From NCBI RefSeq assembly GCF_003334305.1, contig NZ_QOWS01000029.1: a DNA stretch of 43,616 bases; one strand, 5' to 3'. This stretch comes from Escherichia coli. GTDB taxonomy: Bacteria > Pseudomonadota > Gammaproteobacteria > Enterobacterales > Enterobacteriaceae. Positions 91 to 948 of this stretch are shown here, one piece after another. Position 1 is the first letter of the stretch; each line of letters begins with the position of its first letter. Below the pieces are notes generated by a model that ran no database searches, was not told the DNA's origin, and worked only from the letters and a program-made list of their open reading frames with translations. The translations under genes were made by a program, and so were the position numbers.

Positions 91-948
91 TCAGCCTAAA
101 ACTGCCAGTTTTTCGAGCGTTTCGAAGCCGTAACGCTGTAAAACGGGCAATAATTGTTCAGCTTCTGGCGTCATTGCCATACAAAAGGCAATATTCGCAT
201 CGGCAGATTTTGCATCCGGAGCTTCATGTTCTAACAGCCAGGCCGTTCTGCGAGCAATCGCTGCGCCAGAATCCACCAGCCGGGTTCCCTCTGGCAGCAC
301 CTGTAAGAGTTCTTCTTGTAGTAGAGGGAAATGGGTGCAACCCAATACAACGGTATCTGGCGGCTCTTTCATTCTTAACCACGGGCGTAGGATACGTTTT
401 AGTGCATCCAGAGAAACATCTTCGCCATGCAGCTTCGCTTCAGCCAACTCAACCATCTCTGCCGAGCCCAGCATTTCTATCTGGCATTCATTAGCGAAAC
501 GCGCGATCAGCTCATGAGTATAAGAACGTTTAACAGTTCCGCGGGTTGCCAGTAATCCGACAATGCCATTTGCCGTCAGACGTGCAGCAGGTTTAATCGC
601 CGGCACGACACCAACAACCGGGAAGTCGAACTTTTCGCGTAATGCAGGAAGTGAAACGGTACTGGCGGTGTTGCAAGCGACCACAGCCAGCGCAAGGGGA
701 TAACGTTCTTGCACTGCGGTGACAATTGCCACCACTCGCTCAACAATAAACTCTTCGCTTTTTTCGCCATACGGAAAAGCGACGTTATCGAAAGCATAAA
801 TGTAATGGAGATCCGGTAAGAGATGCCGGATCTCGTCATAGACCGACAACCCACCGACGCCGGAGTCAAACACCAGCACGGTGGGACGTGGTTCAGAAGG
901 TGTAGCTGCCAGACAAGGTGTATTCCCGTCCTGCAGTTTGGTAGCCAT
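91..948 (-). CDS. murI: Glutamate racemase; start trimmed to MATKLQ (285 aa)
   Basis: Translation of ORF 91..960 matches E. coli MurI as I recall it ([33 protein letters not shown]...). Its 5' end overlaps the 3' end of btuB, the known arrangement. Confidence 0.93.

Follow-up and report, generated by a model that had tools for sequence, protein, structure and literature searches.

The gene murI encodes glutamate racemase, which is essential for the D-glutamate of peptidoglycan. In Escherichia coli it begins inside the 3′ end of btuB, the gene for a vitamin B12 receptor, and btuB in turn lies downstream of a cobalamin riboswitch. This layout raises the question of how the cell secures a supply of an essential cell-wall enzyme whose gene sits behind, and partly within, a gene repressed by B12. 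We address this question at the left end of a 43,616-nucleotide stretch of E. coli DNA (the window), a standard chromosomal stretch in which trmA (on the opposite strand), the riboswitch, btuB, murI and an edge promoter follow one another in minus-strand order (Table 1). The first-pass annotation of the window had described murI as starting inside btuB in a 56-bp same-strand overlap, had called this a known feature of the locus, and had taken btuB to be riboswitch-controlled. All of this is upheld: the coordinates and their arithmetic agree with the ORFs, with RefSeq and with K-12, RefSeq annotation and the literature both record the overlap, and a match to the cobalamin riboswitch family lies in the btuB leader.

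The btuB-murI overlap is thus an already known and documented feature of E. coli, and a 2022 paper terms it "well-characterized". Owing to the overlap with murI, a btuB knockout is missing from the Keio collection, and a phage-receptor screen has scored murI as a spurious hit (10.1101/2025.12.01.691526). Herein lies the practical weight of the overlap: a clean btuB deletion is impossible, and phage-receptor screens give a murI artefact. What we add, from comparison of sequences across species, is evidence for ATG 948 as the conserved start, for a dual-frame constraint, and for a conserved control region with a candidate promoter. The current understanding of btuB and murI is unchanged by these results.

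Table 1. Features of the btuB-murI locus, in window coordinates.
Feature	Position	Strand	Details	Basis
murI CDS, glutamate racemase, 285 aa	91..948	-	start ATG 948-946, stop TGA 93-91	ORF, PGAP and K-12 annotation
btuB CDS, TonB-dependent B12 receptor, 614 aa	893..2737	-	stop TGA 895-893	ORF and annotation
Same-strand overlap btuB/murI, 56 nt	893..948	-	BtuB residues 597-614 plus stop; MurI residues 1-18/19 in +1 frame	
Alternative in-frame ATG for murI	958..960	-	289 aa, 68-nt overlap	ORF list
Weak Shine-Dalgarno-like GAG	956..958	-	7 nt before ATG 948 (-10..-8)	16S 3′-end duplex energy
Inferred murI promoter and translation-initiation region, 48 nt	949..996	-	btuB codons 581-596	reduced synonymous variation
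Candidate extended -10 element TGGTAAAAT	984..992	-		motif match and conservation
Cobalamin riboswitch, btuB leader	2803..2992	-	full-length	Rfam RF00174, 86.8 bits; RefSeq riboswitch annotation

On the minus strand, the 3′ end of btuB reads GGC AGC TAC ACC TTC TGA, and murI from 948 reads ATG GCT ACC AAA CTG CAG. The murI frame is +1 relative to that of btuB, with btuB codon position 2 serving as murI position 1. In a 100%-identical E. coli genome annotated by PGAP, btuB occupies 664..2508 and murI 2453..3310 in locus coordinates, equivalent to 2737..893 and 948..91 of the window. The layout of K-12 MG1655 is identical (btuB, b3966, 4163639..4165483; murI, b3967, 4165428..4166285). Window and K-12 share 99.4% identity over btuB-murI and an identical junction, and the K-12 junction in RefSeq has the same locus, start, stop and 56-nt overlap, with no structural difference from the window.

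Both partners in the overlap are genuine protein-coding genes, MurI by its match to a solved structure and btuB by its annotation and the Pfam domains of an orthologue. Residues 5-289 of the 289-aa murI ORF match the chain of PDB 2JFN with two substitutions (E = 8e-187), the window protein differs from K-12 MurI by two substitutions (A66E and G262E), and MurI homologues carry the Asp/Glu racemase domain (PF01177). The Proteus orthologue of BtuB has Plug and TonB_dep_Rec_b-barrel Pfam matches. The automatic ORF list begins btuB at TTG 2782 (629 aa) and the annotation at ATG 2737 (614 aa), a start that fits the signal-peptide-like N-terminus MIKKASLL. Elsewhere in the window, a full-length OxyS small RNA (RF00035, 139.5 bits) lies at 7982-8091 on the plus strand, as expected beside oxyR in E. 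coli.

Our comparison covered 81 Enterobacteriaceae sequences, namely the window and 80 species representatives, and 82 loci with Proteus included. The codon alignment of btuB comprised 79 sequences; synonymous diversity was scored at conserved, degenerate codons, and btuB codons 21-570 served as the background in Mann-Whitney comparisons. One of the six search patterns used to sample species was MATKLQDG, which slightly favours loci that keep the MurI N-terminus. A word-indexed homologue search recovered close relatives only. A search of 50%-representative homologues, together with context look-ups, yielded Proteus, Shewanella, Ferrimonas, Zooshikella and several endosymbionts but neither Vibrio nor any member of the Pasteurellaceae or Yersiniaceae, and it therefore sets only rough limits on the age of the overlap. 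Two loci carry broken btuB ORFs, one with a frameshift in a G-run (Citrobacter amalonaticus) and one with an in-frame stop (Intestinirhabdus alba), and both have the junction, the ATG and TGGTAAAAT intact. They were set aside as natural experiments, the frameshift being probably a sequencing error and the stop of uncertain reliability.

The species comparison bears out the assignment of the MurI start to ATG 948 (MATKLQ) made in the first-pass annotation. An ATG stands at this position in all 81 Enterobacteriaceae sequences and in Proteus (Morganellaceae), where the gene order is likewise trmA-btuB-murI, the same 56-nt overlap is present and MurI is 67% identical. Among the Enterobacteriaceae, the overlap is exactly 56 nt in 79 of the 81 sequences, the two exceptions being those in which the btuB ORF is broken upstream. 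The A and T of ATG 948 are supplied by the codon for BtuB Tyr597, which is TAT in 79/79 sequences; at 19 other conserved BtuB tyrosines (129-547), TAT is found in 21-63 of about 79 sequences and TAC in the remainder. The 2JFN structure chain is also 285 aa long and begins MATKLQ. Pairing with the anti-Shine-Dalgarno sequence is weak at ATG 948 (-2.7 kcal/mol, against a median of -3.9 for the 29 long ORFs of the window) and weaker still at the other in-frame ATG, 960 (-0.9 kcal/mol). The only Shine-Dalgarno-like element, GAG at 958-956, lies before ATG 948 and downstream of ATG 960, and it is the codon for BtuB Glu594, invariant in 79/79 sequences. The btuB-murI overlap is not a chance ORF overlap, and the species comparison favours ATG 948 over 960 as the start that we infer for murI in vivo.

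Within the overlap, each third position of a btuB codon is the second position of a murI codon, so low synonymous diversity in btuB is expected there if both proteins are kept. Diversity at btuB codons 597-614 is indeed 0.046, compared with 0.519 in the background (p = 8e-12, 79 sequences). In murI, synonymous diversity is 0.034 over codons 1-19 and climbs to about 0.5-0.6 further in. The two genes form an out-of-frame overlapping pair, in that both are coding, murI starts before btuB stops, and a dual constraint is conserved. At the protein level, amino-acid conservation of BtuB among Enterobacteriaceae is ~0.57-0.8 over most of the barrel and 0.97-0.99 over the last 34 residues. BtuB varies widely save where murI signals overlap btuB.

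Two other starts have been weighed. The second in-frame ATG, at 960-958, is absent from the first-pass annotation; it is open, and the ORF list takes it as the murI start. If it were the main start in E. coli, the protein would have 289 residues and the overlap would be 68 nt. This ATG arises from a synonymous TAC to TAT change in the codon for BtuB Tyr593, and it is found in Proteus, in K-12 and in the 4694 of 5426 complete E. coli genomes (about 87%) that are identical to the window over 925-995. The TAT allele is thus the majority within E. coli. Among the 81 species-level sequences of Enterobacteriaceae, however, only the window and one other Escherichia lineage have ATG 960, and the codon is TAC in the remaining 79. 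Early prediction had the murI product begin at the upstream ATG, with 289 aa, and the start was revised later; the version suffix of NP_418402.2 is consistent with such a revision. The 285-aa start is the one found in current RefSeq annotation, in this K-12 protein and in the PDB chain, and both the anti-Shine-Dalgarno pairing and the position of GAG speak against 960. We consider its use as the main start quite improbable; a minor 289-aa form of MurI may be made from it in E. coli. Whichever ATG is used, murI starts inside btuB. Were MurI to start past the end of btuB, at GTG codon 24 or 26 for instance, the annotated overlap would be an artefact. Other MurI proteins do begin at about this position, and transposon insertions in the overlap are viable, which led their authors to propose that a truncated MurI may function (10.1101/2025.12.01.691526). 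Yet the insertions are biased 10-fold in orientation, a bias reported specifically for the overlap portion and consistent with transposon-driven expression (10.1101/2025.12.01.691526). The GTG codons have no Shine-Dalgarno match (+0.6 kcal/mol), the third positions of btuB in the overlap are nearly invariant beyond the coding needs of BtuB, and ATG 948 and the TAT codon of Tyr597 are conserved in all species. A start downstream of btuB is, in our judgement, very improbable indeed.

Constraint also extends upstream of ATG 948. Over the preceding 48 nt, synonymous diversity in btuB is 0.106, against 0.519 in the background (p = 6e-10), and nowhere else in btuB do 15 consecutive informative codons average less than 0.417. 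Comparison of E. coli with Proteus gives nucleotide identities of 96% at -48..-25, 83% at -24..-1, 73% in the overlap, 58% over btuB overall and 63% in murI beyond the overlap. Taken whole, the 48-nt stretch is 90% identical between the two and is among the two best-conserved 48-nt windows in 2.6 kb. Coding for MurI starts only after it, and coding for BtuB cannot account for its conservation.

The most distinctive part of this stretch is TGGTAAAAT at 992-984, the sole match to TGNTAWAAT in the 43.6-kb window on both strands. A TGnTAnAAT motif occupies the orthologous position in 82 of 82 loci (80 with TGGTAAAAT, 2 with TGGTAGAAT). Its TG, T-12, A-11 and T-7 never vary, and the only change is at hexamer position 3 (A>G, in 2 lineages). 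Elsewhere in btuB, over ~1.8 kb, a single further TGNTANAAT turns up in the 82 loci taken together. The third positions of the codons for Arg582 (CGT) and Gly583 (GGT) are invariant among the sequences that keep these residues (78 and 79 of 79, respectively). With a TGn adjoining a hexamer that has T-12, A-11 and T-7, and with conservation beyond coding need, TGGTAAAAT has the make-up of an extended -10 element. The transcript start predicted from it, near A978, would give a leader of ~30 nt. No -35 element was found at this candidate promoter, and the -35 region is variable, with 56 distinct 31-mers among the 82 loci.

An internal murI promoter within btuB, a possibility raised by the first-pass annotation, thus has a conserved extended -10 candidate at a site that a generic promoter scan did not report. 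No murI start-site, initiation or N-terminal data were found in Kim 2012 (gene name and coordinates) or in the Cappable-seq and TRAINSPOTTER supplements. A paper on operon dynamics includes only btuB, within a gene list, and no murI start site, and text searches of the literature for a named murI promoter returned nothing relevant. We regard it as likely, from the pattern of conservation, that btuB contains a self-contained murI promoter and ribosome site, with TGGTAAAAT as the candidate.

Several other sites in the locus drew attention. A promoter called by the generic scan within btuB at 1121..1094 (TTATCA-16-TATGAT) was rejected, as the corresponding region of Salmonella arizonae has no promoter-like site and synonymous variation there is ordinary. 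The codon for BtuB Tyr573 (1019-1021) is TAT in 79/79 sequences; it is not part of the constrained block, its distance from the candidate -10 is not that of a -35 element, and its invariance is possibly due to chance. At the other end of the gene, synonymous diversity in btuB codons 1-20 (2678-2737) is 0.26, against ~0.52 elsewhere, which suggests that the riboswitch expression platform or the initiation region reaches into the coding sequence. Beyond murI, a near-consensus promoter (TTGTCA-16-TATAAT) lies at 45..18 on the minus strand, ~46 nt past the murI stop at 93-91, with an A/T-rich block before it; it looks like the P1 promoter of an rRNA operon at the edge of the window. Synonymous diversity in murI codons 267-285 is 0.34, against about 0.5, and upstream elements of the edge promoter may therefore extend into the 3′ end of murI.

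The first-pass annotation had further held that the overlap implies transcriptional or translational coupling of murI to the riboswitch-controlled btuB. Of these, co-transcription is plausible, and translational coupling is not implied by the arrangement. A sequence scan found no terminator-like site between btuB and murI, which makes read-through transcription into murI plausible. In bacterial operons, same-strand overlaps of 1 or 4 nt (ATGA/TAATG) serve termination-reinitiation coupling. The btuB and murI genes resemble such pairs in being adjacent on the same strand with no terminator between them. They differ in that 53 nt separate the murI ATG from the btuB stop codon downstream of it, and the two are in different frames, so a ribosome terminating on btuB is not placed to restart at murI, and dependence on upstream translation is not indicated. 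Coupling by unmasking is not supported either. The 91-nt leader and start region folds at -17.9 kcal/mol, compared with a mean of -17.3 for shuffled sequences (z = -0.2), and this comparison gave no masking structure over the murI start.

Published genetics are suggestive of murI independence from btuB. The btuB gene is dispensable and murI is essential, and cells survive the loss of ~1000 bp from the 5′ end of btuB, start codon included (10.1101/2025.12.01.691526). Transposon insertions are likewise tolerated in btuB and not in murI. These results do not prove a native internal promoter, because a kanamycin cassette was present in the btuB deletion and transcription can run outwards from Tn5. 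The overlap portion with orientation-biased insertions lies downstream of the proposed promoter, and a transposon there must supply both transcription and a new start. In an engineered strain, strong synthetic ribosome sites for murI were harmful and a very weak one was best (PMC5820350). MurI seems to be needed at a low level, and such a need fits the weak native ribosome site.

Two further explanations compete with an internal promoter. Under the more extreme, murI lacks any signals of its own, with the btuB promoter as its sole source of transcription and coupling to btuB ribosomes as its means of translation, such that the supply of MurI tracks B12 status. The riboswitch upstream of btuB, the missing terminator and the weak Shine-Dalgarno element all agree with this, and one paper treats btuB-murI as an operon, having measured the btuB transcript alone. 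Against it stand the distance and frame of the murI start relative to the btuB stop, the lack of any structure to unmask, and the tolerance of btuB disruption in spite of the essentiality of murI. Under full dependence, moreover, repression of btuB by B12 would starve the cell of an essential enzyme, and the synonymous constraint and TGnTAnAAT motif upstream of the ATG would be left unexplained. Such complete dependence is improbable. More generally, given the geometry, the lack of structure, the tolerated loss of btuB and the constrained 48 nt with its -10 motif, an obligatory dependence of murI on B12-controlled signals is unlikely. The other explanation holds that the conserved 48 nt act at the RNA level, as an A/U-rich S1 landing site or a processing site, and that the btuB-murI transcript is the sole murI mRNA. 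In its favour, constraint spans the whole of -48..-1, including the A-rich GGTAAAATAGCCAAC and AAAGATTA, and the candidate promoter has no -35 element. The pattern of variation, however, suits a -10 element, with TG, T-12, A-11 and T-7 fixed and hexamer position 3 alone changing, and an RNA-level element would make the tolerance of btuB disruption harder to explain. We think this reading unlikely, if somewhat less so than full dependence on btuB; the constraint over -48..-20 could nonetheless come from a signal in the RNA, for instance a translational enhancer rich in A/U or a site of RNA processing.

The origin of the overlap can be approached through the N-terminus of MurI. Structures of Gram-positive MurI proteins align with E. 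coli MurI only from residue ~24, and MurI of Shewanella and Ferrimonas starts 4-5 residues before the FDSGxGG motif, with no N-terminal extension. The enterobacterial extension of ~20 residues is therefore a derived feature. The stretch read from within btuB corresponds precisely to its first 18 residues. In Shewanella decolorationis (locus L087, 1262-3319) and Ferrimonas (locus L090, 1735-3798), trmA and murI are divergent neighbours separated by a spacer of 141-174 nt, with no btuB. A connection has been drawn between the N-terminal extension and the response of E. coli MurI to its activator, UDP-MurNAc-L-Ala.

Overprinting creates a new coding segment within an existing gene by use of another reading frame. 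The present case is similar, as MurI residues 1-18 lie in the +1 frame of the BtuB C-terminus and outgroup MurI proteins have no extension. It differs from the overprinting of a whole gene in that only an 18-residue N-terminal extension is involved. We infer that the MurI extension arose by overprinting on btuB. The simplest reading of the gene order would be that btuB came to be placed between trmA and murI and that its 3′ end then supplied murI with a start and control signals. Alternatively, btuB may have been lost in the Shewanella and Ferrimonas outgroups.

We propose that the overlap is real and conserved, and that murI has its own control region within btuB and does not rely on translational coupling, an explanation to which we assign a probability of roughly 0.7. 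The 48 nt of btuB before the murI ATG would serve as this control region. Within it, GAG at -10..-8 would be a weak ribosome-binding site, and TGGTAAAAT would most likely be a sigma-70 promoter of the extended -10 type from which the ~30-nt leader would start. Read-through from the riboswitch-controlled btuB promoter probably adds to murI transcription, and the internal signals would sustain MurI at a low basal level while btuB is shut off by B12. Promoters within the coding sequence of an upstream gene are known to feed essential downstream genes, for example in the cell-division cluster upstream of ftsZ. The murI case is alike in having a conserved sigma-70-type element in the coding region before an essential gene, with reduced synonymous variation as its signature. 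It is unlike the promoters upstream of ftsZ in that the element is a predicted extended -10 with no -35 and lies in a riboswitch-repressed gene.

We speculate that the region at ~893-996 has a triple role, encoding the C-terminal strands of BtuB and the overprinted extension of MurI while carrying a promoter and ribosome site that insulate murI from riboswitch repression. The origin of this arrangement would be the placement of btuB between the once adjacent trmA and murI, no later than the last ancestor that Enterobacteriaceae and Morganellaceae share. The odds of this fuller account being correct are, in our estimation, about even. For engineering of btuB, at least the last ~105 bp of the gene (window 893-997) should be kept unaltered. 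If the internal promoter is real, it would explain how an essential cell-wall enzyme can be encoded behind a B12-repressed gene, and the locus would provide a simple case of coding sequence under triple constraint.
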